Shown here one piece after another: positions 6,412 to 54,925 of a stretch of DNA of 64,000 nt; the stretch's first letter is position 1, and every line of letters begins with the position of its first letter. The notes beneath the pieces were generated by a model. That model made no database searches and was not told where the DNA came from. It saw nothing but the letters and a program-made list of their open reading frames with translations. Where the stretch lies: positions 164 through 64,163 of the forward strand of contig CAMVEA010000002.1 of the NCBI GenBank assembly GCA_947166405.1, read 5' to 3'. The translations under genes were made by a program, and so were the position numbers. This DNA is from an uncultured Candidatus Saccharibacteria bacterium. Its GTDB lineage: Bacteria; Patescibacteriota; Saccharimonadia; Saccharimonadales; Saccharimonadaceae.

Positions 6412-6579
6412 AGAATCATTATACCCTTAATTGACTTATTCGTCAAAACGTGCTTATAGCACAATAATTAAACGATAAAAGCCACGAATAATCTCACCCA
6501 TATAAACTTAGCCCAAGAGCCATTTCCAAGCCAAACATAATACCAATCATCTCACTTAAACGTTTCTTCATCATAATCG

Positions 6580-6672
6580 AAACTTGACTTGGAATTCACT
6601 TCCAAGTCAAGTTTAATACTGGTTTTCTTTCTTGGTCTTTCTTTTCCCGAAAAGAAAGACCAGATTTCAAAA
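6580..6672 (-). repeat. Double-hairpin dispersed element, copy 1
   Basis: 15-bp perfect stem 6580-6594/6600-6614 with loop TTCAC, 18-nt linker, 13-bp perfect stem 6633-6645/6650-6662 with loop CCCG. Homologous to 18083-18170 and 59408-59486. Confidence 0.85.
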
Positions 6673-6705
6673 AACGCCGAGATAGCGTATTTTCAACAAC
6701 TTAAA

Positions 6706-6809
6706 TTTCTTAGCAAAAATTCGCTAGATTGGTGTTTTCTCCTTACGAAGCGCGTCTAATGGACGAGCGAGTAAGGAAAAACGCCGAGATAGCGAATTTT
6801 TGCAAGAAA
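6706..6809. other. ~100-nt imperfect long hairpin directly after the rpsJ stop
   Basis: Nested pairs GCAAAAATTCGCTA/TAGCGAATTTTTGC, GGTGTTTT/AAAACGCC, TCCTTAC/GTAAGGA and CGTC/GACG. The 18-bp AAAAACGCCGAGATAGCG is duplicated at 6670-6687 and 6777-6794. Confidence 0.75.
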
Positions 6810-6810
6810 T

Positions 6811-7137
6811 TTACATGCGAATCTCAGCATCTACCCCAGCCGGGAGCGACAAATTCTGCAAACTCTCAATCGTCTTAGGTGTTGCATTCGAAATATCAAT
6901 CAAACGTTTATGAACTTTCATCTCAAACGCTTCACCACCAGTTTTATACACGTGTGGCGACTTCACGACTGTATAAGTAGACCTTTTTGTAGGAAGTGGA
7001 ATCGGCCCACTAATAGATGCACCCGTCCTAATTGCAGTATCGACAATCTGCCGCGCACTCTGATCAATTACCCTGTGGTCATACGCCTTCAACTTAATAC
7101 GTATTTTTAGCCCCTCATCTTTTTTTGCTTCTGTCAT
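6811..7137 (-). CDS. rpsJ: 30S ribosomal protein S10, stand-alone
   Basis: [15 protein letters not shown]...GPIPLPT...KSPHVYK...[11 protein letters not shown]. Confidence 0.98.
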
Positions 7138-8153: not shown

Positions 8154-8879
8154 CTAATGTCGCTTTTTATCTTCTCTACCCAGATTAACCTTCTTATAAT
8201 ACTTTACCCCCTCCGCCGCCGCATGCGCCTGTGCGTCCTGTTTCGAATGCCCAATTCCAGTTCCACGCAATGTATCACCCACATACAGCCCAACCGTAAA
8301 CACTTTATCATGATCGGGCCCCTCCTCACGCAAAGTTCTATATACCGGAGTAAGCCCATCAATCTTCTGTGCCAGTTCTTGTACATAAGACTTCGGGTCG
8401 CGCCACGTACCCTCCTCAATCACTGTCTCTGTTTTTACTAGAATATGCTTCGCAATAAACTCTCTGGCAACTTCATACCCTTGATCCAAATAAACCGCCC
8501 CAATCACCGCCTCAAAACAATCCGCCAAAATCACATCATGCGCGCGCTCTGTACCATTTTGCTCACCTCTGGACAATCTCACTAGTGGTTCATATCCAAG
8601 TTCCTTGCCAGCCTCACAAATCGACTCAGTCCTCACAAGCGCCGCCCGAATCGCCGTCATAATTCCCTCAGGATAATCATAATTACGGAACAAATAATCC
8701 GATGTCACAATTTCAAGCACTGCATCACCTAGGAATTCCAATCGCTCGTTGTGCTCATGTACTTTCCTATGTTCATTCACATAGCTTCTATGCGTAAGCG
8801 CTGTCACCAACAAATTAATATCATTAAACTCAAAACCTAATTTATCCTTCGCAAATTCCTTATATGCATTATAATCCAT
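8154..8879 (-). CDS. rnc: Ribonuclease III
   Basis: HNERLEFLGDAVL signature, ADCFEAVIGAVYLD and a C-terminal dsRBD (DPKS..QE). Confidence 0.97.
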   Translation of the reverse strand: MDYNAYKEFAKDKLGFEFNDINLLVTALTHRSYVNEHRKVHEHNERLEFLGDAVLEIVTSDYLFRNYDYPEGIMTAIRAALVRTESICEAGKELGYEPLVRLSRGEQNGTERAHDVILADCFEAVIGAVYLDQGYEVAREFIAKHILVKTETVIEEGTWRDPKSYVQELAQKIDGLTPVYRTLREEGPDHDKVFTVGLYVGDTLRGTGIGHSKQDAQAHAAAEGVKYYKKVNLGREDKKRH

Positions 8880-14580: not shown

Positions 14581-15783
14581 CTATAATTTCTTTGCTTTAT
14601 CCATCTGCGGATCCTTCATTGCGTTGATCTCCTCATAAGTTCGCCCTACCTCTACATCAGGCTTAATCCCCTCGCCATTAATAGAGCGTTCCTTTGGCGT
14701 ATACCACGATGCTGTCGTAACTTTTAACTTCGAACCGCCATCGAGATCAAACAACTCTTGCACTACGCCTTTACCATAAGTCTGCTCACCGACCACAGTC
14801 GCCTTACCATAATCCTGCAATGCTCCCGCAACAATCTCAGAAGCCGACGCAGTCGAACCATTCACCAATACTATTGTCTTCATATCCTTCAAAAGTGCCT
14901 TACCGTGATGCGCATTCGTCACTTTATCACTCGAAGTTTTCGACTTCTGCACAAGCACAGGCTCACCATCCACCCACAAACTCAACAAATCTTGCGCCGC
15001 ACTCACATATCCACCACCGTTACCACGCAAATCAAGTATCACCTTCTTAATCCCTTTGTCAGCAAACTTCTTCGCAAATTCTTCCACCATCGTGCCAGTA
15101 TCATTGTCAAATCTTGTCACAGTCACAATTGCCGTATGCCCATCATATTCCACATATGCAGACACATTATTAATCGTTTCACGCTTCATTTTAAAGTCTT
15201 TCTCTTCACCATCACGCACTACTGTCACCTTAACTTCAGTACCAGACTCACCACGTACTTTCTTTGAAACCTCCTCAGTACTCAACATATACACTTCTTC
15301 ATCATCAACCTTATATATTATATCACCAGCCAACATCCCGACTTTACGCGCCGGATTGTCCGGTAATGTCCGAAGTACTCTCACATATCCGTCCCTCATT
15401 CCCATTTCCACACCTATACCAGCACCGACATTACCATGCAAATCATTTTCAAATTCTTCCGCCTCTTCAGCAGACATATACACTGTATACTTATCACCCA
15501 ACGAGTCCACAAGCCCCCTCTTAGCTCCCTCCACTACCTCACTCTTATCTATTTCGCCATTATACTTCTTCGACAACTTATCATATACATTATTAAGTAC
15601 ATCCCAATTAATCTCATTACTTGCACTTTGTTCTAAACCCAGATACGGCGCCATACCACCGAACCACGAGTTCCAATTTGCACCAACCACCACGCCAATA
15701 AGCATCATCACAGCACCCACGATAATAGCATTCCCGAGCGTAACTTTCCTGACTTTCCATTCTTGTTGATTTTTCTCTACCAT
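14581..15783 (-). CDS. S41 family C-terminal processing protease (CtpA-like) with PDZ domain
   Basis: N-terminal TM, GIGVEM PDZ, DLRGNGGG, TASASEI, GEQTYGKG. Confidence 0.93.
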   Translation of the reverse strand: MVEKNQQEWKVRKVTLGNAIIVGAVMMLIGVVVGANWNSWFGGMAPYLGLEQSASNEINWDVLNNVYDKLSKKYNGEIDKSEVVEGAKRGLVDSLGDKYTVYMSAEEAEEFENDLHGNVGAGIGVEMGMRDGYVRVLRTLPDNPARKVGMLAGDIIYKVDDEEVYMLSTEEVSKKVRGESGTEVKVTVVRDGEEKDFKMKRETINNVSAYVEYDGHTAIVTVTRFDNDTGTMVEEFAKKFADKGIKKVILDLRGNGGGYVSAAQDLLSLWVDGEPVLVQKSKTSSDKVTNAHHGKALLKDMKTIVLVNGSTASASEIVAGALQDYGKATVVGEQTYGKGVVQELFDLDGGSKLKVTTASWYTPKERSINGEGIKPDVEVGRTYEEINAMKDPQMDKAKKL

Positions 15784-15894
15784 ACAATATATTATAGCAC
15801 AAGTTTATCCATTACAATTAACGAACTTGCAAAATCCTGTTACTGTTCGCTCCTAGGCAGATCATATCATCGTCCTACAAAACAACAACGCCAC

Positions 15895-15993
15895 TATCCC
15901 CCGGGCGGGTCCTGTCGTCGCCTCCTCCCCCACGTCGCTAAGGCTCCGTGGGGGACCCCCTCCGGCGACACCACCCGCCCATAAGGGGCAATA
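15895..15993. other. GC-rich long hairpin element between the FISUMP gene and the S41 protease gene
   Basis: GGGCGGGT/ACCCGCCC (15903-10/15973-80), TGTCGTCG/CGGCGACA and TCCCCCACG/CGTGGGGGA around loop TCGCTAAGGCTC. Far higher GC than its surroundings. Confidence 0.8.
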
Positions 15994-16112
15994 ATCGTAA
16001 GTCGAGTCGTCAATCTACCCTCATGGGTCTAAGACTCTTGAGGAGTAAATCTTGAGTTTCCTTAATTATGTATCCTTGGGAGCAACCCCCGACTGCATCC
16101 ATCAGCAATCGT

Positions 16113-17993
16113 CTAGGAACTTGCTAAGCACCTAATAGTCCTACCGAAGTACTTATAGTTGCTGCTAGTACCTGGGTCGACATTTGCGCTACCCAGACCC
16201 AAGTAGTAAGCGTTGTTGTTACTGTACGCGGTAGACGACCAGTAGTTGCCGTAGCTACCTCGATAGTAGACAGACCCGCTGTTGACGTAGCCGGAGTAGA
16301 GGAAGTTATTAGGATAGCTTCTAATAGCTACTGTAGCAGTTTTGTTAGCAACATTAGTTACGCTGTTGCCGTAATAGCCATAACCATTTGATGCGTTCTG
16401 GTCTGGTTCAATACTATTACCGCTACTATCTTTCATAATGGATTTACCTAGTACATAGAAATCTGCAGTAGTATTTACGGTTGTTTGTCCACCAGTAGGA
16501 AGGCGCCAACCACTTGGGCAAATTGAAGTGTTAGTAACGGAAGCATTACTGGAAGCATAGTTGTTAAGATCAGCAATAGCAGCAGCCCAAGTGTAATAGT
16601 TGCCATAGCTGTATGTATTGGCGCTTGTAGCAGGAGCAGAGGCTCTATCAGATGTGTTTTGGTTGTTATAGCGTGGGAATCTGTAGCCCGCAATAGTTGT
16701 GCCAATGTTTGTCGTGTTATCTGCTCCATCAGTGCTATATAGGCTATTGGCAGTAGTGATGTTATTCCTCCATGGTGATTCTGGATTGGCAAGACCAGCG
16801 AAATTACCATAAGTGGCATTTGTAGCGTAGCCTTGTGCTAGTGCACCAGTAGAATTATCGCTATTAGTGTTATCTAAGCGCATGTTCTCAATCATCCAGC
16901 ACTTACCGTCTGCGAGTTTAGCGATGGCGTAGGTGTTGTTGTCGCGCTGGTCAGTAAGGGCGGAGACGGAGGCGAGGTTTGCAGTGCCGTCTATTGGAGC
17001 AGACGTGAGGGAGTTACAGACACTAGCTACTTTGGTTGAGTCTTGGAGGTTACCTTGGCTCTTAACCCATACAGCATAGAGTGAGAGACCTGGATTGGCG
17101 CCAGTGTAATCAGCAGTATTTAGCGTGATGTCCTCCATTGGTCCATAGAACTTAGCCTCAGGGTTCGTGGCATAGTCATATTTATCGCTCCACCCAGCGA
17201 AACCATAGCCAATACGGCTGAAGTTGGATGGGAGGAGAGTGACGGAAGATGATACGCTTTGAGTGCTCATAGTACCTACCACATCATTAGCACTAGGACT
17301 ATAGCAGATTTTACCACTAGCACAACTCATAGGACCATCCTGTGGGAGCTTAGTAGCAGGATGAATCATTGTATACTTCACTTTACCTACATAAGTATCA
17401 GCTGCTTGCGTAGCAGAAGTATGGAACCTATATGTGGCACTAACACCAAATGAAGTAGCATCAGTAGTATTAGAGTTCCTAGCAGCGACTTTAGTATAAG
17501 TACTTGGTACTGTAGTATAGGTGCTTTGTAGGAAATCTGGTGCCGTATATCCATCAGCATTCATTAGCTTCATAGACCAGTTGGAGGTGGAATCATTAGT
17601 ACCAGTAGCAATATTGCCAAGTGTACCAATCATATTAGTATTGCCATATTCATCATTAGAGTATCCAATCGCATAAATAGCAAGCCCTCCAGGATCATTA
17701 CAGGTAGCAGTAAATGTAGTAGCACCTACATTCTCAGCTGTATCATTATTAACCATCGTAGTACTATGAGGAGTAGTATTAGCAGTACTCATTGAGCAAG
17801 CCTCAGCTACTGTGACAGAAGCATTAGCCGAAGTCGCTCCATCCGCCACCACTCTTACTGCACCAGCCACTATTCCACTTATCACTGTAATTCCTACAAG
17901 CCCTAATGACACCATACTAATCAACCCAGTATCGGCATCAATGTGTTTTACTAGTTTTCTTTGATGCTTCTTCATCTCAATTCTATCCTCCAT
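16113..17993 (-). CDS. Exported FISUMP (Fib_succ_major)/C-type-lectin-like domain protein; probable DGR target (start may be 17975)
   Basis: N-terminal hydrophobic anchor, LTDQRDNNTYAIAKLADGKCWMIENMR, GNYYTWAAA, ICPSGWRLPT, C-terminal GNYWSST...GRTIRCL. Confidence 0.85.
   Translation of the reverse strand: MEDRIEMKKHQRKLVKHIDADTGLISMVSLGLVGITVISGIVAGAVRVVADGATSANASVTVAEACSMSTANTTPHSTTMVNNDTAENVGATTFTATCNDPGGLAIYAIGYSNDEYGNTNMIGTLGNIATGTNDSTSNWSMKLMNADGYTAPDFLQSTYTTVPSTYTKVAARNSNTTDATSFGVSATYRFHTSATQAADTYVGKVKYTMIHPATKLPQDGPMSCASGKICYSPSANDVVGTMSTQSVSSSVTLLPSNFSRIGYGFAGWSDKYDYATNPEAKFYGPMEDITLNTADYTGANPGLSLYAVWVKSQGNLQDSTKVASVCNSLTSAPIDGTANLASVSALTDQRDNNTYAIAKLADGKCWMIENMRLDNTNSDNSTGALAQGYATNATYGNFAGLANPESPWRNNITTANSLYSTDGADNTTNIGTTIAGYRFPRYNNQNTSDRASAPATSANTYSYGNYYTWAAAIADLNNYASSNASVTNTSICPSGWRLPTGGQTTVNTTADFYVLGKSIMKDSSGNSIEPDQNASNGYGYYGNSVTNVANKTATVAIRSYPNNFLYSGYVNSGSVYYRGSYGNYWSSTAYSNNNAYYLGLGSANVDPGTSSNYKYFGRTIRCLASS
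16116..16310 (-). other. Candidate DGR variable region (VR)
   Basis: In the last 65 codons, 9/11 Tyr are TAC, 7/9 Asn are AAC and there are five AGC Ser. The residue pattern fits A-to-N changes in AAY codons. Confidence 0.6.
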
Positions 17994-18082
17994 ATATTAC
18001 ACCCATTATATCATACTATTTATGTTTTAATGCAAAATTCGTTTTTTCACTCACCCACCTAGAGAATAACAAATAATCATCA

Positions 18083-18170
18083 AAATCCGAATTGGAATTC
18101 ACTTCCAATTCGGATTTCATCCTGGTTTCTTTTGTTGGGGTTTTCTTTTCCGAAAGAAAACCCCAGATTA
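18083..18170 (-). repeat. Double-hairpin dispersed element, copy 2
   Basis: AAATCCGAATTGGAA-TTCAC-TTCCAATTCGGATTT (18083-18117), 18-nt linker, TGGGGTTTTCTTT-TCCG-AAAGAAAACCCCA (18136-18165). Starts 5 nt after the CHAP gene stop. Confidence 0.85.
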
Positions 18171-19337
18171 TCAAAAATGTATATAATTATAATTCCCCGC
18201 CTCACCCGCCGAAATCTTACGTGCGCCAAAATCACCAACATGATAAGAACCAGTCAGCTGCCCAGTCGACCAATAATTGTTATATTCTGTCACATTAATC
18301 GAGCCGTCAGCTTCTACACTCTCCACCCAGAAGACATGTCCATAAGGACCGTCGTTCATCTGCCCAATCGTACCAGGAGCAGGAATGTTATCAACTCTAT
18401 AGCCAGCCGCCCTCGCACCATCATCCCATGAATAAGCGTTACCCCACGAAGCAATTACACCATACGCCTCATAAGCTTTCCAACCAGCATAGCTCACACA
18501 TTCACACACATATCCACCAATTTTACGCCATCCATTTGCAGTCTCGACATAAGTCAAATAAGCATCTTGCCTATCAGGACAATCTCCTTGCCAAGGATAA
18601 GTATTGGCTCCATTATATACACCACCCTGGTAATATGATTGGTGGGATTCCTGATATTCTCGAATCGCCGCCTGCTGCGCCAACCGTGCCTCCTTCGCCT
18701 CCTCAGCGTACGCTTCTGCATCATTTTCGTATTTAGCGACCAATTCTTCTTGCTCAGCCTTCTTCGCCGTCAAGGCATCCATTGTTACTTGCTGCTGTGA
18801 CAGTAAATCCTCCACAGCCTCTTTATCTGCTTCAAGCTGCGCTTTTGTTTCCTTCACTTTGATTGCAGAAGCACTAATCTGTTCCTTCACAACCTCCTCA
18901 CGCGCAGCCCTTTCAGCCAAATCCGAAATCGAACTCGCTCCTGCAAGCACTCGAATTGGCTCAGCATCCGTCTCAAAGTGCATATTCACCAATAATTCCG
19001 CCAAAGCATCTTTTTCCTGAGCCAGTTTTTTTTCGGCAGCCAATATCTCCGCCTTCAATGCCTTAATCTGAGCTTCAGTATCAGCAATCTCAGCTTCTTT
19101 TCCCGCAATATCAACCTTGAGCTCATTTACTTTATTCTGATATGCATTAGCAGAATGCTCTGCTACTGCCGCATTTTTATTCGCTTCCTCTTCCTTAGCT
19201 ACTGCCTCCATACATTTATCACTCTTCTTGCAAATCTCAGAAATAGCATTCACCTTACTCATAGGCAATAACCCAATTACAATCATAATAGTTAAGACAA
19301 CATTTAATATATTTCTTTTAGTTTTCATTTTATCCAT
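18171..19337 (-). CDS. Coiled-coil + CHAP-domain peptidoglycan hydrolase (PcsB/CwlO-like FtsEX partner)
   Basis: Signal peptide, long coiled coil, ECVSYAGW, WGNAYSW, YGHVFWVE, EYN. Follows ftsX. Confidence 0.9.
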   Translation of the reverse strand: MDKMKTKRNILNVVLTIMIVIGLLPMSKVNAISEICKKSDKCMEAVAKEEEANKNAAVAEHSANAYQNKVNELKVDIAGKEAEIADTEAQIKALKAEILAAEKKLAQEKDALAELLVNMHFETDAEPIRVLAGASSISDLAERAAREEVVKEQISASAIKVKETKAQLEADKEAVEDLLSQQQVTMDALTAKKAEQEELVAKYENDAEAYAEEAKEARLAQQAAIREYQESHQSYYQGGVYNGANTYPWQGDCPDRQDAYLTYVETANGWRKIGGYVCECVSYAGWKAYEAYGVIASWGNAYSWDDGARAAGYRVDNIPAPGTIGQMNDGPYGHVFWVESVEADGSINVTEYNNYWSTGQLTGSYHVGDFGARKISAGEAGNYNYIHF

Positions 19338-40434: not shown

Positions 40435-40463
40435 ATTTTTCCTTTACGTTTAATATCCATCCC

Positions 40464-40492
40464 ATTATATCATATATCATCAAAAAAGTAAA
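40464..40492 (-). promoter_or_regulatory. Dedicated promoter upstream of rplF
   Basis: TTTACT-17 nt-TATAAT with extended -10 TG, about 30 nt upstream of the rplF start; AAGGA SD. Confidence 0.7.
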
Positions 40493-40518
40493 TGCCCGTG
40501 ACGCAACCGCATAACCAA

Positions 40519-41235
40519 TTATTTCTTACCATCGTCCAAGATTAACTGTGGGTTAGTTGTCGTCAAGAGCGCTAGCTCACGTTCATTATAATACCGCGAA
40601 GCCTTCTTTAAACCCTCAGTCAACGAATTACGAGGCCCAGCCCGATGCGTATCACTTGCGAGCAGATAAATCATTTTTTTCTTTGCCATCTTTTTCACCA
40701 AATGCTCCGCTCCAGGCCCATATTTCCCGATAAAACTTCGAATATTAGACTGAAATAAAACCCCCATATCATAAAGGACAAGCAATGCATCATAATCTTC
40801 CTGAAATAAAGCATATCTTTCCGGATGCGCTAACACTACTTTATAACCCTTATCAATCAATTCACGGAAATACCACTCGCAACGCATAGTCTCTTCGTTC
40901 AGAGAAAGTTCTATCAACAAATACCGACTACCCGCCAAAGACGTCAACTCACCAGCCTTAATCAATTCTTCAATATTTTCAGTATAAAATATCTCATTTC
41001 CCAAGTACAAATTAACATCAATGCCTTCAGCATCTAACCTGTTCTTAAGCTCCTCTAATAATTTATAATTAGCATTTATCGGCGAATTATAATCAGTCTC
41101 GTAAATATAATGTGGCGTAGCTACGATATCAGTCATTCCTTGCCGGACCAACCACTTGATTGCATCAATACTCTCATTAATATTCTCTGCTCCATCATCC
41201 ACGCCCGGCAGAAAATGTGAATGTAAATCTATCAT
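40519..41235 (-). CDS. CpsB/Wzh-type PHP-family protein-tyrosine phosphatase
   Basis: MIDLHSHFLPGVDDGA, ATPH, LAHPERY, ASDTH. Confidence 0.93.
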   Translation of the reverse strand: MIDLHSHFLPGVDDGAENINESIDAIKWLVRQGMTDIVATPHYIYETDYNSPINANYKLLEELKNRLDAEGIDVNLYLGNEIFYTENIEELIKAGELTSLAGSRYLLIELSLNEETMRCEWYFRELIDKGYKVVLAHPERYALFQEDYDALLVLYDMGVLFQSNIRSFIGKYGPGAEHLVKKMAKKKMIYLLASDTHRAGPRNSLTEGLKKASRYYNERELALLTTTNPQLILDDGKK

Positions 41236-42605
41236 TCTTTACTGGAATACCCGTAATAGTAATAACTGTTATAATATTTCGTCGCTTTGCGGTCCACCAT
41301 ATTAAAGACTATACCCGCAACATTTGCGCCCACCTTATCAAGAGACTCCTTCACACTCATCAAATCCGCTTTTGAGGTTTTTCCATCCTTCACGACAATC
41401 AATGTCTCATCCATATAGCTCGAAAGAATCACCGAGTCCGCCAAGCCGCCCACAGGAGCACCATCAAATATGATGACATCATAACGTCGCTTTAATTTCT
41501 CAATCACTTGCTTGTTCTTCTTCGAAGCCAAAAGCTCACTCGGATTCGGCGGATAAGTACCGCAAGTTATCACGTCCAAATTCTTAATTCTGGTTGGCTG
41601 AATATAACTATCAAAATCCTTCAAATCACTCGTCAGCAAGTTCGATAAGCCCCTCGTGTTTGGCAATCTAAACAACCTGTGCAACCGCCCTTTCCTCAAA
41701 TCACAGTCTACCAGCAATACCTTCTTATCCGCCTGCGCAAAAGAAGTTGCAAGGTTCGACGACACAAAGCTCTTCCCCTCACTCGCATTCGTACTCGTAA
41801 TCAGAATAGTCTTAATCTCCTTATCGACCGAGGTAAATTGCAAATTCGTACGCAAGCTCTTGATATTCTCGCTCACTATCGCCTTCGGTGATTTCTCGAC
41901 AATCAATTCGCTGTCATCATTCCGTCGCCTTCCAGCATCACCCCTCAGTATTAATCCAGTAACCGGCAAGCCAATCGTCTTCTCGGCGTCATCGCCATGT
42001 TTTACCGTATCATCCAAGTAGAATCTCAGGAAAGCAAAGCCCGCCACCGCCAAAATCGCAATCATCGCCGCTAGCACCACATCACGCGTCAAAGATTTAT
42101 TAGCCGGAGCTTCCGGCACCGAAGCCACACTTAGTTGCTTGACATTTTCGATGTTATAAAGCGACACTACCTCAGAAGAAAACACTTTTGCAATCTCATT
42201 AGCAATCGCCGTCGCACGACGCGCATCGGGATTCTTGACCTTGATGCTCAAAATAGAAGTATCCTCAATCGGCTGAATCGTCAAATCACGACTGAGAGCT
42301 TTAGCATCAGTACGAAGCCCCAGATTATTAATCACTTGGTTTAGCACCAACTCACTTTTTGCAATCTCGCCATAAGTCGACACTAGCTTCTGACTCATAT
42401 TTACGTCAGTATAAGCCGCCGTACCACCTTCATTCGCAGCATCCGCCTTCGCTACCACCACTGTCGTTTGCGCTTGATAGATCGGAGTTTTAAACATTAA
42501 ATTATAAACTACCACTCCGCCAACCGCCAGAACAATCAATACAATAAAAGCAATAATGTATTTTTTAAGATAAATAAAAAAGTCTTTAATATTTATTTCT
42601 TCCAT
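41232..42605 (-). CDS. Fused CpsC-CpsD (Wzz chain-length regulator + BY-kinase)
   Basis: Two-TM Wzz part, then LRTNLQF, STNASEGKS Walker A, VDCDLRK, DGAP and C-terminal Tyr cluster YYNSYYYYGY. Confidence 0.93.
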   Translation of the reverse strand: MEEINIKDFFIYLKKYIIAFIVLIVLAVGGVVVYNLMFKTPIYQAQTTVVVAKADAANEGGTAAYTDVNMSQKLVSTYGEIAKSELVLNQVINNLGLRTDAKALSRDLTIQPIEDTSILSIKVKNPDARRATAIANEIAKVFSSEVVSLYNIENVKQLSVASVPEAPANKSLTRDVVLAAMIAILAVAGFAFLRFYLDDTVKHGDDAEKTIGLPVTGLILRGDAGRRRNDDSELIVEKSPKAIVSENIKSLRTNLQFTSVDKEIKTILITSTNASEGKSFVSSNLATSFAQADKKVLLVDCDLRKGRLHRLFRLPNTRGLSNLLTSDLKDFDSYIQPTRIKNLDVITCGTYPPNPSELLASKKNKQVIEKLKRRYDVIIFDGAPVGGLADSVILSSYMDETLIVVKDGKTSKADLMSVKESLDKVGANVAGIVFNMVDRKATKYYNSYYYYGYSSKE

Positions 42606-42689
42606 TAATTTAATCTCCTTATCTTATTATAACATAAGCTACGTTTTTTTAAACCACAAATAAGTTGTTTCACCACACCAGGCATCACC

Positions 42690-44939
42690 CTATTCCGCCC
42701 TCATAGTTGTAGTTAAATCTGCATTAGGATTAGTTGAAGTCGTATTGTTAACTGTTCCAGAAGCATTCGAATCCTCATCAACCGATTCATCATTCAGTGT
42801 ATCAACCATGCTAGGACTGCCCCCATCAACCTCGTCAACATTACCCTCACCGGTCGGGTCCAAATCAGTTTCGCCATCGCTTTCCTTCTTTATTGATTCT
42901 TTATTAGTTGTAGGGGATGTACCAAGATATTCATAAATCTTATTCCTCGCATTCTTCACCGTTTCTTCCGACGGAATCATCACATACAATAATCTATTGG
43001 CACCCATACTATAAGTTGGCTCATAGGTACCAGTCCCATCAACCGCAATTGATTCGACCTGCCACTTGATATTATTCAAAAGCTGCATTCTTACGAAAGA
43101 CGAAACATTATCACGCGAGAAGGTAGTTTCAAACGAATCACCCGCAATGTCGAGTATGGTTGGAATTCTTAGCAAATAATCCCGCGAGCTACCCAAGCGC
43201 CCAATGATACTGGTAATCACTTGTTGTTGGTTTTCACCACGATGACGATCACCGGTTTCGTATGATTTACGCTCACGTGCGAACCGAAGCGCACAGTTCC
43301 CATCAACGTGCTGTATACCTTCTGTGAAATGGCACCTCGCCCCATTTTCACCCGTCAGATTCATCTCTCTATCCGACTCAATATCAATACCGTCCAGCTG
43401 GTCCACTGTCTTAATCACCGTCTCGAAGCTCACCTTAATCGTATAATCAATCTCAATACCAAGGAAATCTTCAATCGTATTCTTACTCATATCAATGCCG
43501 TACACACCAGCATGAGTCAGCTTATCCTTGAGCCCAGTTGTATTATGTAGCTGCACATAAGTATCACGGGGGATGGATACCAACAGGATCTTGCTTTCTT
43601 TCGGGTTCACTACCGCCACAATATTAACGTCCGAACGTGCCGTAGTCTTAACGCCAGTTCGCGAATCACTCCCCGAAATCAACACCGTAAATGGCTCAGC
43701 GGTAATCTCCTTGTCTACCACATCAACGATTTTATCATCTGATTCTATTTCAAAAGTATAAATCACACGGATTCTCTTTGCGAACTCATCCTCATTCTCA
43801 TTAAACATTTCCAAACGATCACTCTCAAGCACCATCGCATTTGCGATATCGCTAGCTAATGCATCCATCATGATATCAATATTATCGTAATAATCTGCAT
43901 CAAAGCTCACCTGAGTCTGCAAATGTTGCTCTGCCTTAGTAGCCATAGAATCAGTCTTGATAAATCCAACATGCTTATCCTTGATCTGGTTAAGATTCTG
44001 AATCACGCCCTCTTCCATCACAGCTACACTGTACTGCCTTCTCTCCGGATGGTACCCAGTCACTTTATTCAAAAACCCATTATAAGCAAACATGTAACGC
44101 AAAGCAAATCCTATTACCACCACCAACAATACTCCCACTACCGACAAGATGAGTTTCTTCTTTAAATTACCATTAGAGGCTCTTCTGGTATTTCTACGAT
44201 TTTTCTTAGGATGCTCGATGTCAACTATCCTTTCCAATTTAGTATTAGGCATTTCAATCTTCGAATTGGCCTTCTTTGATTCAATAGCACCTACATTTCC
44301 ATCCTTCTCATCCTTTTTCTTGGCAACATTCAGCTTAACACCACTTGCCTCACCACCCGACTTCACATCAATTGCTTCAGCAACGCTTACCTTGTTTTTT
44401 GACGGCTTAATAGTTCGCGGCTTAGACTTAGTAGATTCGGCAGATTTGGCAGATTTGGCAGATTTAGTGGATTTAACAGCATTAGCGACTTTAGACTCTT
44501 TCTCAGCCACCTCAGCAACTACTGGCTCCGCCACCTTAGTAGCATCAGATTTAGTATCAACAGTACCAGCAATTTTCGACTTCACATCAATTGCTTCAGC
44601 AGCTATTGGCTCTGCCGCCTTAGAAGCATCCAATTTAGCATCAACAGTACCAGCAATTTTCGACTTCACATCAATCACCTCAGTGATCTCGGGCTCAATA
44701 TCAGTTACCTTAACGGTCTTAGACTTAGTACGGCTCAGCTTAGTCGCTTGCGATTCTTCTACCTTCGGCTTGCCAGAGTTTAATCTGCTTGCTTGCATTA
44801 AACGACTCGACCTACGTACTCTTCTCGTATTCTTTAGTCCACTTACCTGCATCGAACGCCCTTGTTTTCGTGCTTTTTTCGACACCTTCAATTTATCCGG
44901 CTGCCCCGAGTCAGGATCATTGCTTACTTTAATATCCAT
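42690..44939 (-). CDS. LCP (LytR-CpsA-Psr) family protein with ~260-aa disordered cytoplasmic N-terminus
   Basis: LISGSDSR, RSDVNI, LVSIPRDTYV, KLTHAG, ALRFARER...GDRHRGENQQ. Confidence 0.92.
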   Translation of the reverse strand: MDIKVSNDPDSGQPDKLKVSKKARKQGRSMQVSGLKNTRRVRRSSRLMQASRLNSGKPKVEESQATKLSRTKSKTVKVTDIEPEITEVIDVKSKIAGTVDAKLDASKAAEPIAAEAIDVKSKIAGTVDTKSDATKVAEPVVAEVAEKESKVANAVKSTKSAKSAKSAESTKSKPRTIKPSKNKVSVAEAIDVKSGGEASGVKLNVAKKKDEKDGNVGAIESKKANSKIEMPNTKLERIVDIEHPKKNRRNTRRASNGNLKKKLILSVVGVLLVVVIGFALRYMFAYNGFLNKVTGYHPERRQYSVAVMEEGVIQNLNQIKDKHVGFIKTDSMATKAEQHLQTQVSFDADYYDNIDIMMDALASDIANAMVLESDRLEMFNENEDEFAKRIRVIYTFEIESDDKIVDVVDKEITAEPFTVLISGSDSRTGVKTTARSDVNIVAVVNPKESKILLVSIPRDTYVQLHNTTGLKDKLTHAGVYGIDMSKNTIEDFLGIEIDYTIKVSFETVIKTVDQLDGIDIESDREMNLTGENGARCHFTEGIQHVDGNCALRFARERKSYETGDRHRGENQQQVITSIIGRLGSSRDYLLRIPTILDIAGDSFETTFSRDNVSSFVRMQLLNNIKWQVESIAVDGTGTYEPTYSMGANRLLYVMIPSEETVKNARNKIYEYLGTSPTTNKESIKKESDGETDLDPTGEGNVDEVDGGSPSMVDTLNDESVDEDSNASGTVNNTTSTNPNADLTTTMRAE
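44358..44675. repeat. Internal coding repeats in the LCP N-terminus
   Basis: 36-bp identical block at 44556-44591 and 44640-44675 (84-bp period); 25-bp block at 44358-44382 and 44577-44601; 9-bp GATTTGGCA tandem near 44440-44465. Confidence 0.85.
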
Positions 44940-45243
44940 TATTTAATCTTACTCCACATAAAATTACTAACCTTCCATATATTTTATATTATTTTTCACA
45001 TTTAGTCAACAAAACTTAAGCGTTTTTCCACAGAAAAATAAATGGCGCCCAAGCTCTTCGTACCCTTATTCGTATTAAAGTTTTTTCGGTACAATATACA
45101 TAACATGAAACCAGACTGCAAAAAGATTGTCCAAATGATTAGCTACTTAGCCCATCAACAGGACAACGGCAATCCAGTTCCCGAACCCAAAAACATCATA
45201 TTAAACCGGGCTACTACTTCGCAATCTATCAATAAGTACGATA

Positions 45244-46428
45244 TTAATCTCTCGCAAACAAATCCCTTGTGTAAACAATATCTGATACGTCACGTATTTC
45301 ATCTTCCAATCGATTCGCAATTATTATGTCACTCCGTTTTACAAAACTATCATAGTCATTTTCTATCTCAAAGCCATTAAACTTCTTCTCAGTAATAGTT
45401 GGTTCATAAATAATCACCTTCACCCCTTCACCACGCAAATGTTTAATCACATCCTGAATAGCAGATGAACGGAAATTATCCGACCCACTCTTCATTGTCA
45501 GGCGAAACACCCCCACAGTTTCTGGCTGACGCTTTAGTATATCTTTTGCAATAAATTCTTTGCGAATCTTATTAGCTTGCACAATAGCTCTAATCAAATC
45601 CTGCGGCACACCACGATAATTCGCCAAAAGCTGCTTCGTGTCCTTAGGTAAGCAGTACCCACCGTATCCAAAAGAAGGATTGTTGTAATGCGTACCAATC
45701 CTCGGATCAAGACAAACACCATCAATAATCGCCTTAGCATTCAAGCCTTTAACCTGCGCATAAGTATCCAACTCGTTAAAATAAGAGACCCTCAAAGCCA
45801 AATAAGTATTGGCAAATAGTTTAATCGCCTCAGCTTCAGTTGGCGGCACAAATAATACAGGCACATCTTCCTTAAGTGCGGAATCTTTCAATAATTCAGC
45901 AAATTCCTTGGCCTTATCAGAATCATCTCCTATTACAATACGTGAAGGATATAAATTATCATAAAGCGCTTTCCCCTCCCGCAAAAACTCCGGTGAAAAG
46001 AAAATATTATCGATCTTATATTCTTCGCGAATACGCTCAACATAACCAACCGGCACAGTAGATTTAATCACCATAGTAATATTATCGTCTTTCATACGTA
46101 TTACTTTTTTGATGATATCTTCCACAGCCGACGTATCAAATGCATTCGTCTCATCATCATAATTAGTGGGCGTTGCAATTATTACAAATTTTGCATCCTT
46201 CATCGCATCCTTATAATCAGTAGTACTACGAATATTGAGTTTGCGCTCACCATTCTTTGTTTCATTAAAGTATTTCTCGATATATTCATCGCGTATTGGC
46301 GATACTAAATTATTAATCATGTCCGCCTTGGCTTGGTCTTTTTCTAAAACTACCACCTTATGATTTTGTGAAATCAAGGTCGCCAAAGACAAACCAACAT
46401 AACCACCCCCTGCAACTGTTATTTTCAT
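45244..46428 (-). CDS. ugd: UDP-glucose 6-dehydrogenase
   Basis: AGGGYVG, SPEFLREG, EAIKLFANTYLALRV, GYGGYCLPKD. Confidence 0.95.
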   Translation of the reverse strand: MKITVAGGGYVGLSLATLISQNHKVVVLEKDQAKADMINNLVSPIRDEYIEKYFNETKNGERKLNIRSTTDYKDAMKDAKFVIIATPTNYDDETNAFDTSAVEDIIKKVIRMKDDNITMVIKSTVPVGYVERIREEYKIDNIFFSPEFLREGKALYDNLYPSRIVIGDDSDKAKEFAELLKDSALKEDVPVLFVPPTEAEAIKLFANTYLALRVSYFNELDTYAQVKGLNAKAIIDGVCLDPRIGTHYNNPSFGYGGYCLPKDTKQLLANYRGVPQDLIRAIVQANKIRKEFIAKDILKRQPETVGVFRLTMKSGSDNFRSSAIQDVIKHLRGEGVKVIIYEPTITEKKFNGFEIENDYDSFVKRSDIIIANRLEDEIRDVSDIVYTRDLFARD

Positions 46429-46485
46429 TATTTATATCTCCTATATTATATATTAATATCTTTTTTCAAAAATGTCAAGTTAACC

Positions 46486-47535
46486 TTATCCGTAGAACTC
46501 CTTATACCATTCCGCAAACTTTCTTAAGCCATCACGCAGTTTCGTATGCGGTCGAAATCCAAAATCCTTCTCCAATGCAGAAGTATCCGCATATGTTACA
46601 GGAACATCACCAGGCTGCATCGCCACCAATTCCTTATGTGCATCAAAGTCATAATCCTCTGGCAAGACCTTGGCACGAATCAACTCTTCTTGCAATATCT
46701 GCACGAAATCTAACAAGTTTTCTGGATTTGAATTCCCGATATTATATATAGCATAGGGCGCCAATGGTAACCCATCTTCACCATCACGCTTCTGAGGCGC
46801 CTTCGCCATTACTCTCATCACCCCCTCAACAATATCATCAATATAAGTAAAGTCACGTTTACAATTTCCATAATTGAAAATCTGAATCTTCTCGCCTTTT
46901 ATTAATTTATTCGTAAAACCAAAGTATGCCATATCTGGACGTCCCGCTGGACCATACACAGTGAAAAAACGAAGACCTGTCGATGGTATATTATATAATT
47001 TAGAATATGCATGTGCAAGTAGCTCATTTGATTTTTTGGTTGCAGCGTATAAACTTACTGGATTATCGACCTTATCATCCACCGCAAAAGGAACCTTTTT
47101 ATTCCCACCATAGACCGAGGATGACGACGCATAGACCAAATGTTCCGGAGTGTAATGTCGACAAGCTTCCAAAATATTATAAAAACCAATCAAATTCGCT
47201 TCAATATACACATCAGGATGTTCAATACTATATCTCACTCCAGCCTGCGCCGCAAGATTTACTACGATGTCTGGATGATATTCTTTAAACAAATTTTCCA
47301 CAACTTTTTTATCCGCAAGATTTCCCCTTACAAAAATAAAATTCTTAAATTTCGTCAGATTTTCTAACCGATATTCCTTTAACCTCACGTCATAATAATC
47401 GTTAACACTATCTAGCCCAATCACCTTCGCTTCTGGGTTTTCCTCACACACCTTCTTTACTAAAGCCGCACCAATAAATCCCGCCGCACCAGTAATTAGT
47501 ATTGTCTTATTATAATAATAAACCGTATAATCCAT
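46486..47535 (-). CDS. NAD-dependent epimerase (UDP-glucuronate 4-epimerase/CapI-like)
   Basis: TGAAGFIG, NLAAQAGVRYS, YASSSSVYG, YAATK, GLRFFTVYGP. Start MDYTV at 47535. Confidence 0.92.
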   Translation of the reverse strand: MDYTVYYYNKTILITGAAGFIGAALVKKVCEENPEAKVIGLDSVNDYYDVRLKEYRLENLTKFKNFIFVRGNLADKKVVENLFKEYHPDIVVNLAAQAGVRYSIEHPDVYIEANLIGFYNILEACRHYTPEHLVYASSSSVYGGNKKVPFAVDDKVDNPVSLYAATKKSNELLAHAYSKLYNIPSTGLRFFTVYGPAGRPDMAYFGFTNKLIKGEKIQIFNYGNCKRDFTYIDDIVEGVMRVMAKAPQKRDGEDGLPLAPYAIYNIGNSNPENLLDFVQILQEELIRAKVLPEDYDFDAHKELVAMQPGDVPVTYADTSALEKDFGFRPHTKLRDGLRKFAEWYKEFYG

Positions 47536-47570
47536 AACACAAATTATACCATGAAAGATAATATAACACA

Positions 47571-47761
47571 AATCTAATCCCTACATTTGTTGTTATTCCG
47601 TAATAATGTCATAGTAGATTGTTTTATCAAAATGTCACCCCACTAATAATCCTTTCTAGAAGAGATTATATCAAACAATATCTTCTATTTTAGTTGTTTT
47701 AATTATTGTAGCCGATGCAGGTGACATTTTTAGAAAACGTTGACAATCTAATCCCTACATT
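47571..47761. repeat. 17-bp direct repeats enclosing 11-bp inverted repeats
   Basis: AATCTAATCCCTACATT at 47571-47587 and 47745-47761; AAAATGTCACC (47629-47639) and GGTGACATTTT (47720-47730). Confidence 0.85.
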
Positions 47762-47810
47762 CAATCATAAAACACAATTATTAAACTTATACTGTTCTTA
47801 ACAGGGCTTA

Positions 47811-49274
47811 CTATATATTCTTATTATTCTTTTTAATCCTTTTTTTAATAATTCTCTTAGTTTCCAAAAACAAAGATTTGCACGTCTTAAATTCAAAGAT
47901 TAGTGCCCACATTACAGCTAAAACGCTATAAACGATAAACCCATGAATTGCCCCCATATTTAATCCACAAATAATAAAAACAACCATATTTAAACAAAAG
48001 AAAAGATAGTCTTTAAAATGCAGCGCATATTCTCTTAAATCAATTTCACCTACAATAAACCATATTGTATTAGTTAAAAGCGTAGCAACTGCAATAGAAA
48101 TTGTATTCTTAAATATCAAATACCCTGTCATATTTAATAATAAAGAAACCGCAATGACACACACCATTATTCCAAAATACTTCTTTTGTTGTTTTTTGGA
48201 CTTATAAAGATTTACATGTACAATTCTTATTAGCATTGCCGCATATTGTGCAGCAATCAAAAAGAACAACACTCCAATCGAACTCAAGTATTTGGGGAGC
48301 CAGCTTTCAATTACAAATCTCGCCAAAAATGCAAAAGATATAATAATAGAAGCAAGTAGTAAAGAATATCTTTTTATTTTAATAACCCTCTCATAACTTC
48401 TACCTCTGCAGAAATAGTTATACATGGTAATGGAAATTGGATTAATAAACACATTTAGCAAATTCTCAATGCTAACAGCAAAAGAATAATAAGCGAATTC
48501 AACCATACCTATCAAGTTTTTTACAAATAGTCTATCGATAGAAGTAAAAATTACGTTACAGAAATTACCTGTCATTAAAAAAACACCAGTTCCTACGTTT
48601 TCTTTGATATAACGTCTCTCAAACCGAAAAGCACTTTTTTGTCTGCCCAAGACCTTACGCAACTCATACTCAATAAACATCCAGTACGCAAAATATGTCA
48701 CAACATATGCAACAATATAATACAGGTAATAATCGGTTTTTATAATAAAAAGTAAAATTACATTAATAACAAATATCATTAAAGTATTGATGTTTGTAAA
48801 CCTGGAATATTTTTTAAACTCCCCTATAGCATTATAGAGATTTCGTACATAACTAGACACATTAACAGGCAGAATCACCAAAGAACAAAGCAAGAGAACT
48901 TGATTATTAATAGCTAGGGAAACCCCAACCATCAATAAACACATTATTACTTGAAAAAGCTTAAAGGTATTAAACTCTACTTTTGCTTCTTTGCCATTAA
49001 TCGAATAAATCGATTTACCACCATTCCTAAGATACATCCCATCCGCATAACCAAGATGTAAAATGCCAAGATAAGTAATGTATAGATTAAATAGTTTGAT
49101 ATTCGCGTATGAATCTACTGACAAAAATTTTGGCAAGAAAAAGGCAGTAAATAAACTAATAGCTAAATTTATAGCATTCGCTATAAAAACATACATTATC
49201 CCTCTCTTTACACTAACACTATTGTGTTTCTGATCAGAAATAATTCTGTTCCGCTTATTCATCAATATACTCAT
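47811..49274 (-). CDS. Wzx polysaccharide flippase
   Basis: About 12-14 TM segments, HLGYADGMYLR; low GC, inside the EPS locus. Confidence 0.85.
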   Translation of the reverse strand: MSILMNKRNRIISDQKHNSVSVKRGIMYVFIANAINLAISLFTAFFLPKFLSVDSYANIKLFNLYITYLGILHLGYADGMYLRNGGKSIYSINGKEAKVEFNTFKLFQVIMCLLMVGVSLAINNQVLLLCSLVILPVNVSSYVRNLYNAIGEFKKYSRFTNINTLMIFVINVILLFIIKTDYYLYYIVAYVVTYFAYWMFIEYELRKVLGRQKSAFRFERRYIKENVGTGVFLMTGNFCNVIFTSIDRLFVKNLIGMVEFAYYSFAVSIENLLNVFINPISITMYNYFCRGRSYERVIKIKRYSLLLASIIISFAFLARFVIESWLPKYLSSIGVLFFLIAAQYAAMLIRIVHVNLYKSKKQQKKYFGIMVCVIAVSLLLNMTGYLIFKNTISIAVATLLTNTIWFIVGEIDLREYALHFKDYLFFCLNMVVFIICGLNMGAIHGFIVYSVLAVMWALIFEFKTCKSLFLETKRIIKKRIKKNNKNI

Positions 49275-50176
49275 GGCTTCACATCCTCATTACGCTCAAT
49301 TCTCCTTAACCAATTCTCAAAGCTATAAAAATCTACTATCTTTTTATTTATTATTCTATATGGACTTTTTACAAATTCAGCTAATTTGGTAACATCATCC
49401 TTGCCAATAATAAAAATATTCTCTTGGTTATAAAAATCGTAATTAACTATATCTTGATAATTAGTTATCAATTTTTTGCCATAAAACAATGCTTCTAATG
49501 GCCTAAGAGTTAAACCGCAAGACTGGTTTGGTACTATATCAACGACACATCTGGATCGTTTTACGCAATCAATATAAGTACCGTATTCCACACTCTCGCT
49601 CTTTGTCTCAATTACAGTAAAGCTACACTTCAAACCTTGCCTTTCAGCGCAAACCTTTAATTCGTCCAATATTTGTTTTCGCCCTTTATCCGCTCCTAAA
49701 AAAACAATATCCGTAAATATATTATTATGGCCAACTCGTAATTGGTTTGTTAATACCTGAGGATAAAACTGACAGTTATACTTTAATCTATAATTCTGAG
49801 CATCAAAGCGACTATACGTCCAAATCTCATCAATAAACTTACTATCAAACGCCGCCTTATTATTATTTATCGGATTCCAATACCAAAAAAAGATTTTTAT
49901 TTTAGAATTAACCCGTTTAATATATCGCGCAAGATCATCAGCATTTTCGATACCAGCATCAAACATAATAACCAAATCAGTATCCTTTATCATTTTCTTC
50001 CATGATCCATAAAAAATAGGATAGAAATAATAAAGTCTCAGCTTCCGCACAATCCGTCTAATAATACGAACAGGCAACCAATAACAAGAATAGTATGAAA
50101 AAGCAACACCAGACTTATCAAATGGCATAAACCCATCACCACCTTTCAGGATTATTGTTCTATGCTTATGGTTCAT
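49271..50176 (-). CDS. Probable glycosyltransferase-like EPS protein
   Basis: FWYWNP, WTYSRFDA, FLGADKGR and GLTLRPLEALFYGKKLITN resemble GT-B C-terminal motifs. Confidence 0.6.
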   Translation of the reverse strand: MNHKHRTIILKGGDGFMPFDKSGVAFSYYSCYWLPVRIIRRIVRKLRLYYFYPIFYGSWKKMIKDTDLVIMFDAGIENADDLARYIKRVNSKIKIFFWYWNPINNNKAAFDSKFIDEIWTYSRFDAQNYRLKYNCQFYPQVLTNQLRVGHNNIFTDIVFLGADKGRKQILDELKVCAERQGLKCSFTVIETKSESVEYGTYIDCVKRSRCVVDIVPNQSCGLTLRPLEALFYGKKLITNYQDIVNYDFYNQENIFIIGKDDVTKLAEFVKSPYRIINKKIVDFYSFENWLRRIERNEDVKP

Positions 50177-50252
50177 TGTTTCCTTTCTTCATATTTAGTT
50201 TCTGTATCCTATAATAGCTTTAAAACTAGGAATAATTACAATACAATATATT

Positions 50253-51599: not shown

Positions 51600-51661
51600 T
51601 TAATTGTCACCCTTTATCAATATAATTTCTTTCTTCGTTTACCATACCACCTATAATTATA

Positions 51662-52633
51662 TCATACTAAGTTAATTAATTCATGAAACAAATCACTAAC
51701 ATTATACGAGTGTAAAACTTTTCCAAAACAAGTTAAATTCCCTATATAAATTCTGTTCTTAATTATCTGTTCAAAAAACCTGTTATAAAAAATCTTTTTA
51801 ATCAATTTATCATCATATTTACAGAATTCATGATTTTTCTCCAAAGTATAATCAATCATACGACTAAACTCTTTATAATTCTTTTTCGTGATTTTCTCTC
51901 TTCCACTTAAAAACCAAAGGCACTTACAGATTTTTTCATCATATTTTCCTGTTATTTTACTAGAATTCTTTTCAATAATTCTCCTTGATAATTCACGCTG
52001 AATTTGGCTCTTTTCAAACGAAGCCTGTTTTTTATGCACACGATATTCCAACAAACACTTATCACAATTTCCAATCCTACAATTTCCAGACATTCTACTC
52101 CATAGCTCAAAATCTTGCGAGCAAGTAAAATCATTATCATATTTATATCGCTCAAAAAGACACCTTTTACCTATTATTGTTGGGTGTATTAAAGTTGCCC
52201 TAAACAATAATTGTACTTCTATTTCCTCTGGAGAATTGAACAATAGTTTCTTTTTTCCTCTAGTATTTCCAATTAACAATGCCGAAGTCCCACATAAATC
52301 CAAATCGCTTCTCCGTAAAAACTCAAGCTCTTCAGATATTCTATTCGTCAAACTAATATCATCACTATCCATCCTAGCAATATACTTACCTGTCGATTTT
52401 TCTATACCAAGATTTAAAGAATATGGTAAACCTTTATTCTCCTCATTTAAAATTAGCTTTATTCTGTCATCTTTATATTCTGATTTCAAATAATTATATT
52501 CTTCTTTTGACCCATCGCAAACAACAATCAATTCAAGATTCTTATAAGTCTGTGACAAAATACTATCAATTGCACTTCTTAAATATGATTTTGGAGTATT
52601 ATATGTTGACATAATTACGGAAACTTTATCCAT
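51662..52633 (-). CDS. GT2 glycosyltransferase
   Basis: VSVIMSTYN, VCDGS, YIARMDSDD, HPT, QDFELW. Confidence 0.92.
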   Translation of the reverse strand: MDKVSVIMSTYNTPKSYLRSAIDSILSQTYKNLELIVVCDGSKEEYNYLKSEYKDDRIKLILNEENKGLPYSLNLGIEKSTGKYIARMDSDDISLTNRISEELEFLRRSDLDLCGTSALLIGNTRGKKKLLFNSPEEIEVQLLFRATLIHPTIIGKRCLFERYKYDNDFTCSQDFELWSRMSGNCRIGNCDKCLLEYRVHKKQASFEKSQIQRELSRRIIEKNSSKITGKYDEKICKCLWFLSGREKITKKNYKEFSRMIDYTLEKNHEFCKYDDKLIKKIFYNRFFEQIIKNRIYIGNLTCFGKVLHSYNVSDLFHELINLV

Positions 52634-52691
52634 TATTACTTCCTTTCCTATAATTATTAATTTCGTAATCTATTTTCATAATCTCGATCCC

Positions 52692-54922: not shown

Positions 54923-54925
54923 TAC

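Follow-up and report, generated by a model that had tools for sequence, protein, structure and literature searches.

The window, i.e., the whole stretch of DNA analyzed here, comprises 64,000 nt from an uncultured Candidatus Saccharibacteria bacterium (GCA_947166405.1, contig CAMVEA010000002.1, positions 164-64,163; all coordinates below are window based). It contains three copies of a double-hairpin element, with the minus strand as the RNA strand and extents read from the sequence. Copy 2 (18083-18165) lies behind the CHAP gene: 5 nt beyond the CHAP stop codon (18171-18173) begins hairpin B, the putative accessory hairpin (18136-18165; 13 bp, loop CGGA or, on the plus strand, TCCG, with GATT next on that strand). 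It is followed by a purine-rich linker (18118-18135; ACAAAAGAAACCAGGAUG on the RNA strand) and by hairpin A, the putative terminator hairpin (18083-18117; 15-17 bp, loop GUGAA), after which the RNA strand reads UUUUGAUGAUU. Copy 1 (6580-6662), downstream of rpsJ, consists of hairpin B (6633-6662; 13 bp, loop CGGG on the RNA strand and CCCG on the plus strand, again with GATT next on the plus strand), an 18-nt linker (6615-6632; AGAAAGAAAACCAGUAUU on the RNA strand) and hairpin A (6580-6614; 15 bp, loop GUGAA or, on the plus strand, TTCAC) with a weak U-run, UUUCGAUU. In copy 3 (59406-59486), which is more diverged, hairpin B (59461-59486; 11 bp, loop GAAG) begins 7 nt beyond the rpsH stop codon (59494-59496), and the linker (59443-59460; UGCAGAAAUGACUAGUAA on the RNA strand) leads to hairpin A (59406-59442; loop GUGUA, 16 bp on the minus strand if G.U pairs are counted), after which comes UUUUUUGUU.

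The first-pass annotation of this DNA had described an identical layout of copies 1 and 2 (15-bp stem, 18-nt linker, 13-bp stem, GATT), compensatory changes in their stems and a third, more diverged copy, and the sequence bears this out. Copies 1 and 2 differ at four positions per stem, and all eight altered pairs are still Watson-Crick; the third copy extends over 59406-59486. The proposed location in the 3'-UTR of minus-strand genes also holds for the window copies. That they lie directly behind stop codons is true of copies 2 and 3, while copy 1 sits 137 nt past the rpsJ stop, beyond a separate, conserved hairpin of 105 nt.

Several lines of evidence set these copies apart from chance similarity. 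First, the 17-mer TTGGAATTCACTTCCAA, with up to three mismatches, matches the window at the three copies only (chance expectation 0.35), and none of 100 shuffles equals this. Second, a repeat finder run on the window recovered a 105-nt pair with 73% identity and a 55-nt triple. Third, compared to shuffled sequence, all copies fold with z scores of −5.8 to −7.2. Fourth, a covariance model run with filters off over the entire 64-kb window returned these three copies and no others.

The element is also present outside the window. The search pattern GANTTGGAATNCACTNCCAANTC, a 19-base core made up only of the apical positions common to all three window copies, matches 28 contigs among 185,579 species genomes. 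Of these, 25 come from MAGs assigned to Saccharibacteria or Candidatus Nanosyncoccus, for the most part of sheep and goat gut origin, and the other three, which is about the number expected by chance, are from unrelated taxa and lack the rest of the element. Further copies, which the earlier annotation had proposed to look for by a covariance model, thus exist. In several MAGs, two or three contigs carry a copy, and the window sequence itself was detected in sheep, goat and other gut metagenomes. Among the sequencing runs found for it, a single thin one bore an RNA label and consisted of contigs that carry no strand information, and the rest were metagenomic DNA. In ~180 kb of Saccharibacteria flanks, the covariance model added just two diverged copies. 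When metagenomes were scanned with a pattern for hairpin B plus linker, most of the matches listed were due to chance, and L048, L101 and L129 were the real members among them; a covariance model of the same two parts, run over 288 kb, found no modules with a different hairpin A beyond the known copies and placed the linker only beside an A-type hairpin. In Rfam, there was no match at gathering score in the window and none on the element even at E≤1 in L012, L023 and window 15700-18300; a known RNA family was therefore rejected. Searches of phage, plasmid and viral collections returned nothing resembling the element, and an origin from such sources was likewise rejected. The element is, as had been proposed, an unannotated family, one that is genuine, structured and so far undescribed, from a phylum that has received little study.

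Pair statistics were obtained from an alignment of 25 full copies, for which RNAalifold predicts exactly the two hairpins. In helix B, 92.4% of the cells are paired and 9 of the 10 pairs are changed on both sides. In helix A, 99.5% are paired; eight pairs do not vary, most of them because the search pattern prescribes them, and every pair that it leaves free covaries. None of 500 shuffles attained the observed pairing, and shifting the partner by 1-3 columns reduced it to 35-67%. Compensatory base change is a property of the family and not only of the two copies in which it was first seen. The modules have a GC content of 0.23-0.41 and fold as a whole at −24 to −45 kcal/mol. Unlike textbook terminators, their stems are not GC rich, and stability comes from length. 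A third helix between the 5' flank GGCUU and the linker was considered and rejected: 64% of the cells pair, and a copy's own linker pairs no better than those of others (p=0.19 for all copies and 0.78 with one copy per orthologous group). An alternative switch pairing between an arm of B and the linker was rejected by the same comparison.

The RNA strand is assigned to the minus strand of the window, i.e., to the sense of the upstream genes, with moderate support from folding. The gene-sense strand folds better in 17 of the 25 copies (mean −1.84 kcal/mol; Wilcoxon p=0.029), and within the helices there are ~10 G.U pairs versus 3 A.C. For copy 3, the values are −32.4 kcal/mol (minus strand) and −24.9 kcal/mol (plus strand), since bases that are mismatched on the plus strand can pair as G.U on the minus strand. 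The moderate size of this bias fits with a use of both strands at convergent loci.

These data bear on two readings in which the conserved feature is not an RNA structure. The apex of hairpin A is a perfect palindrome with a 5-nt spacer (TTGGAA-N5-TTCCAA), as might be expected of a DNA-level signal such as an uptake sequence residing in terminators, a recombinase site or an operator. Saccharibacteria have type IV pili, and the paper concerned (PMC11623550) takes up competence as well; moreover, uptake sequences are known in terminator stems of Neisseria and Haemophilus (PMC1852404), where a conserved sequence is likewise common to terminator stems at many loci. However, the stems of both hairpins are compensated over their full 15-17 bp, which a duplex DNA site would not need, and the asymmetry of G.U over A.C indicates RNA. 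Moreover, in the window the motif is confined to the three elements instead of occurring about once per kb, and it is never inside genes. Because it is absent outside terminators and has a low density, nothing points to uptake as in Neisseria and Haemophilus. A role in DNA uptake was rejected since the 17-mer occurs only in the three elements, and we regard a DNA-level signal of any kind as very improbable. The second reading is that the plus strand encodes a small protein, with a start at TTG GAA TTC ACT (MEFTS...). An open frame of 56-70 codons with the same start is present in all three window copies; however, stops at varying places cut the frame in 12 of the 25 copies, and variation is even over the three codon positions (164/163/174). 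Plus-strand coding was, therefore, rejected, and its probability is close to nil.

In the RNA sense, the order of parts is the gene end, a short conserved GGCUU, hairpin B, the linker, an A-run, hairpin A, a U-run and UGAUUAU. The family consensus of the linker is AGCAAAAGAAACYAGUWWG, and that of the apex of A is UUGGAA-GUGAA-UUCCAA. Position was examined for 29 copies. Wherever an upstream gene could be identified, it points the same way as the module and its end lies no more than a few nucleotides away; for three copies (L015, L019 and L028), the DNA covered shows no clear gene on that side. The TAA at the foot of hairpin B serves as the stop codon at six loci. The upstream genes are diverse and include a 5S rRNA gene terminating an rrn operon, genes for tRNA-Arg and tRNA-Met, groEL (identified by Pfam in L010 and read from matching C-terminal ends at three orthologous loci), rpoC, and genes for Hsp20, an arginine-deiminase-type protein, a DcuC-type carrier, a DUF2207 protein and a KwaB-like protein, in addition to CHAP (copy 2) and rpsH (copy 3) in the window. 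Many of these are of kinds that are usually highly expressed.

Hairpin A has the flanks of a terminator. A U-run of at least four nucleotides at its 3' foot, mirrored by an A-run, is present in 22 of 25 copies; in window copies 1 and 2 the U-runs are weak. A consensus scan called hairpin A of copy 2 terminator-like (18119-18081, 17 pairs). A convergent gene (tsf, aspS and others) comes next at 12 or more of 26 loci, its end lying 0-50 nt from A or from a third hairpin, C, described below. In tandem loci, an extended −10 promoter (TGnTATAAT) comes next. In the window, a promoter-like site of this type, TGATATAAT (18005-18013, minus strand), lies downstream of copy 2 and ahead of an inserted 626-aa gene, and downstream of copy 1 a second promoter-like site (6418-6446, minus strand; TTGACG, 17 nt, TATAAT; 11 of 12 matches) precedes a Mur-ligase-like gene. 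The latter site is kept in L164.

Altogether, we consider it probable that, in a Nanosyncoccus-like clade of gut Saccharibacteria, the element is the module at the 3' end of transcription units, namely a conserved, compound intrinsic terminator that can act in both directions. From its structure and covariation, its position, the A and U runs, the neighboring promoters and the purifying selection described below, we infer roles in termination, mRNA stabilization and spacing, which would come about as follows. RNA polymerase would run beyond the stop codon, or beyond the end of a tRNA or rRNA. Hairpin B would fold a few nucleotides from the gene end, and the conserved purine-rich linker after it would remain single stranded. 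The long, AU-rich hairpin A would then fold, with the A-run at its 5' foot and the U-run at its 3' foot, and the transcript would be released at the U-run. Because the A and U runs around A are symmetric, the same hairpin could also terminate a convergent gene on the other strand, for which hairpin C would act as B does for the first. B and the linker may set the terminator ~50 nt from the stop codon, where a ribosome that terminates there could not reach it; according to PMC4824070, ribosomes repress terminators placed only a few bp behind a stop codon, and efficiency grows with distance. In addition, B and the linker may leave a further stable hairpin where the coding region ends, which could block 3'-to-5' exonucleases.

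The element differs in several respects from what an intrinsic terminator is expected to be. A stem-loop with a U-rich tract and a co-oriented position at the end of transcription units were found, while the stem is not GC rich. AU-rich stems, the weak U-runs of copies 1 and 2 and a diverged copy without a U-run in L002 all speak against a terminator. Like known bidirectional intrinsic terminators, the module has a stem-loop with an A-run and a U-run just after genes, would serve convergent pairs from both sides and has the promoters of the next unit behind it. In contrast to them, its stem is unusually long (15-17 bp) and AU rich, one and the same sequence family is met at many unrelated loci in different species, and A always follows a second hairpin plus a conserved linker and often precedes a third hairpin. 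Hairpin clusters located behind stop codons have been suggested to be terminators (PMC8355165); those clustered or tandem hairpins are unrelated in sequence between genes, whereas the module cluster is one conserved family. The earlier annotation had argued that simple terminators do not share loop sequence and spacing in this manner. This does not rule out a terminator: hairpin A has the A-run and U-run of a bidirectional one in 22 of 25 copies, and its apex can be replaced, as in L164. A terminator alone, however, does not explain why the linker and the GUGAA loop are kept at unrelated loci, why B abuts the stop codon, or why C persists in tandem arrangements.

An alternative is a 3'-UTR element that acts mainly in regulation or processing and not in termination, e.g., as a site for a dedicated RNA-binding protein (on the GUGAA loop, the apical stem and the linker), as a signal for processing and stability by RNase III or RNase Y, or as a source of small RNAs derived from the 3'-UTR. 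Conservation exceeds the needs of pairing: the loop position that the search pattern leaves free is U in 23 of 25 copies and the unpaired linker is conserved. Moreover, the independent copy L048 retains the loop GUGAA despite a swapped apical pair, and the window encodes an RNase III (8154-8879; identity read by eye from the sequence). By contrast, the apex of A is wholly replaced in L164 and diverged in L101, and L129 has B and the linker without A; rRNA, tRNA and mRNA genes all precede the element, which disfavors gene-specific regulation, and pairing of the linker with the 5' flank or in a switch is unsupported. We give a mainly regulatory element a small probability.

Variant modules support the idea that the architecture matters more than any one sequence. 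Hairpin C, a third covarying hairpin just downstream of A, is present in ~14 of the 25 aligned copies and in L164, and absent from the window copies. It has 12 bp with C-G at both ends; among 15 such hairpins from 14 loci (L003, L005, L011-L013, L017-L021, L023, L024, L028 and L164, with two C hairpins in L005), 11 have the loop GUU, pairing holds in 172 of 180 cells, and each position shows 1-6 pair types. A conserved GAUUAUGAC precedes C, and an extended −10 promoter often comes immediately after it. Where C stands in for B, the covariance model matches the reverse strand over its full length; thus, the module is roughly symmetric, with an accessory hairpin per incoming transcript and a shared central terminator. 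In L164, after tuf, B, the linker, GAUUAUGAC, C and the promoter are kept, and in place of the usual A there is a different hairpin with A-run, stem and U-run; this variant was found separately from the 288-kb search mentioned above. In L161, the tuf site has an ordinary GC-rich terminator. A further diverged copy in L002 (7761-7862) has an inverted A loop (UUCAC for GUGAA) and no U-run, and a separate, ordinary terminator lies 40 nt downstream of it. To judge by these sequences, the apex of A is dispensable or replaceable, and it is the architecture rather than the sequence that appears to be kept.

Orthologous copies are 81-92% identical, compared to 53-72% at third codon positions of the upstream gene, and this gap persists when the positions of the search pattern are left out. 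Two copies from one genome resemble each other no more closely (identity 0.61) than all other pairs do (0.62), while orthologues reach 0.69, and the nearest relative of each window copy is found in another genome. The first two values give no sign of recent amplification. Together with the slow change of orthologues, they support a family that is old, vertically inherited and under purifying selection.

The history of the window copies is less uniform. In relatives with a 68-76% identical CHAP protein, the gene order is pheT-ftsE-ftsX-CHAP-ctpB-GT4-leuS, with a gap of ~20-30 nt between CHAP and ctpB. Compared to these relatives, the window has a strain-specific insertion of 2.4 kb between CHAP and ctpB (15784-18170, minus strand), made up of copy 2, the 626-aa gene (16113-17993, minus strand) and a spacer. 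The gene, which had been labeled "FISUMP" previously, matches nothing in Pfam at E≤0.001. The 329-nt spacer (15784-16112), which forms the downstream end of the insertion, is GC rich in an AT-rich genome; its predicted folding energy is −122 kcal/mol, and Rfam offers no match for it even at E≤1. It could be an undescribed structured RNA. Likewise, copy 3 lies at the upstream edge of a strain-specific polysaccharide (capsule-type) locus of 19 kb between rpsH and rplF (40435-59493, minus strand), placed in the spc cluster and carrying CapD-like, DegT, glycosyltransferase, polymerase/flippase-like, LytR-CpsA-Psr, chain-length regulator-like and CpsB phosphatase genes. At this junction, relatives whose S8 is 89-90% identical have one unrelated gene of 640-660 aa behind an ordinary terminator, and a relative with 97% identical S8 (L033) has a MITE-like repeat and a reversed 848-aa gene; the element is absent from the rpsH-rplF junction of these relatives. 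Comparison of the 626-aa gene behind copy 2 with the gene at rpsH-rplF in relatives showed the two to be unrelated. Because cargo at this junction differs across strains (L029-L033), it is a hypervariable site. At copy 1, the order from rpsJ to the Mur-ligase gene is kept in relatives and only the intergenic stretch with the copy differs; in a relative with 95% identical S10 this segment is replaced. The earlier proposal that the copies lie at breaks in gene order is, therefore, correct for copies 2 and 3, which are at the upstream edge of insertions, and incorrect for copy 1, where gene order is conserved.

Several of these observations would fit with a non-autonomous mobile element of the REP/BIME, PATE or MITE type that marks or creates insertion hotspots and perhaps moves with accessory cassettes. 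Genomes can have several copies (three in the window, and three contigs each in RGIG5840 and RGIG5646), copies 2 and 3 are at the upstream edge of DNA absent from close relatives, copy 1 is in a segment replaced in a relative, and the cargo at rpsH-rplF differs between strains. At six loci the stop codon is inside the element. Direct repeats of 18-26 nt border small inserts next to the element in L001, L003, L005 and L013, and also in L016 and before copy 1. The repeats in the first four loci consist of the A loop, its 3' arm and the U-run, and in L016 (7245-7400) the tRNA-Met 3' end is duplicated ~45 nt downstream, just before the linker; such locus-specific repeats look like footprints of insertion or local duplication. 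However, in L001, L003, L005 and L013 they surround the C-containing inserts and not the B-A unit, which itself has neither terminal inverted repeats nor a target duplication and in which conservation stops at GGCUU and UGAUUAUGAC. A and B are unrelated in sequence, in contrast to like palindromes, and their order is constant. The identities given above, with copies of one genome no closer to each other than to the rest and orthologues conserved above the synonymous rate, also argue against mobility, as do the density of only three copies per 64 kb, the absence of a transposase or integrase among the window ORFs scanned against Pfam, and the lack of anything alike in the phage, plasmid and viral collections. 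Finally, 5 of 6 orthologous groups in other genomes have identical neighbors on both sides. Thus, the suggestion that the element marks insertion hotspots is not generally valid, and the first-pass reading as a REP/MITE-like element of the HUH type is not supported, given the missing terminal repeats and duplication, the low density, the lack of within-genome likeness and the orthologous inheritance. The two insertion junctions and the recurrent 18-26-nt repeats leave this reading some weight, and we consider it unlikely.

The same observations could also be accommodated if the module is a portable boundary of Saccharibacteria gene cassettes, with accessory DNA entering core operons together with it or beside it. 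Entry might follow natural transformation, and the hairpins and the linker would serve as sites of recombination or protein recognition. This would explain copies 2 and 3 at the edges of inserts, copy 1 in a replaced segment and the local 18-26-nt duplications; we regard it as unlikely, yet of interest, because a tie of copies 2 and 3 to fresh insertions into core operons would be a possible link to cassette insertion and, if true, the more novel finding. An integron attC site was rejected: the module has two separate, fully paired hairpins, no integrase was seen among the scanned window ORFs, and the upstream genes are core genes (rpsH, groEL, tRNAs).

Like the REP and BIME elements of enterobacteria and pseudomonads, the module is a multicopy, modular set of extragenic, transcribed hairpins at the 3' ends of genes, and REP elements are thought to stabilize the upstream mRNA. 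Unlike them, it has no inverted like palindromes and no GTAG-type 5' motif, no RAYT was seen among the window ORFs, there are few copies per 64 kb compared to hundreds per genome, and the copies are old and vertically inherited. Pneumococcal BOX, RUP and SPRITE (PMC3049150) and the neisserial Correia elements are also small, structured intergenic repeats that are cotranscribed and can supply terminators or promoters. Those elements, however, resemble MITEs: they have terminal repeats, target duplications and insertion polymorphism, whereas the B-A unit showed none of the three.

The expression signals of Saccharibacteria, which are reduced bacteria that depend on a host, have hardly been studied, and genetic tools for the group are only beginning to appear. 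In most bacteria, terminators drift freely. Within our preferred reading as a compound bidirectional terminator, the family most likely represents a standardized terminator design. This raises the evolutionary question of why one design is kept at unrelated loci (rrn, tRNAs, groEL, rpoC and r-protein genes). As a probably strong two-way terminator, the module could serve as a landmark for transcription units in hundreds of MAGs and as a ready-made part for genetic constructs in the phylum, and it is a candidate for a new RNA motif family in Rfam.

Other structured or repeated sequences were observed near the element. The hairpin between rpsJ and copy 1 begins directly after the rpsJ stop, spans ~105 nt with 42 predicted pairs (6703-6811 in the window, minus strand; 3919-4027 in L164) and is conserved in this relative with nine pairs changed on both sides; it is an element separate from the module. 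A direct repeat of ~24 nt with the core CGCTATCTCGGCGTTTTT occurs at 6667-6690 and 6774-6797. One copy is in the 5' arm of the rpsJ hairpin, and the other, just upstream of copy 1, forms on its own a small terminator-like hairpin (6688-6674). In L033, the MITE-like stretch (2412-2620) has ~190 nt, with terminal inverted repeats of 30 nt (AGCAATCTAAAAGGTTATTTCTGAAGC...) around an internal terminator-like hairpin. In this clade, the clusters of ribosomal protein genes are also rearranged. rpsJ (6811-7137 in the window; also in L161-L165) is detached from rplC and the other genes of the S10 cluster and followed by a set of Mur-ligase-like, hydrolase, DegT and FemAB genes; in addition, secY comes after rpoC in L021, and in the window it is an FKBP-type gene, and not secY, that follows rplO.
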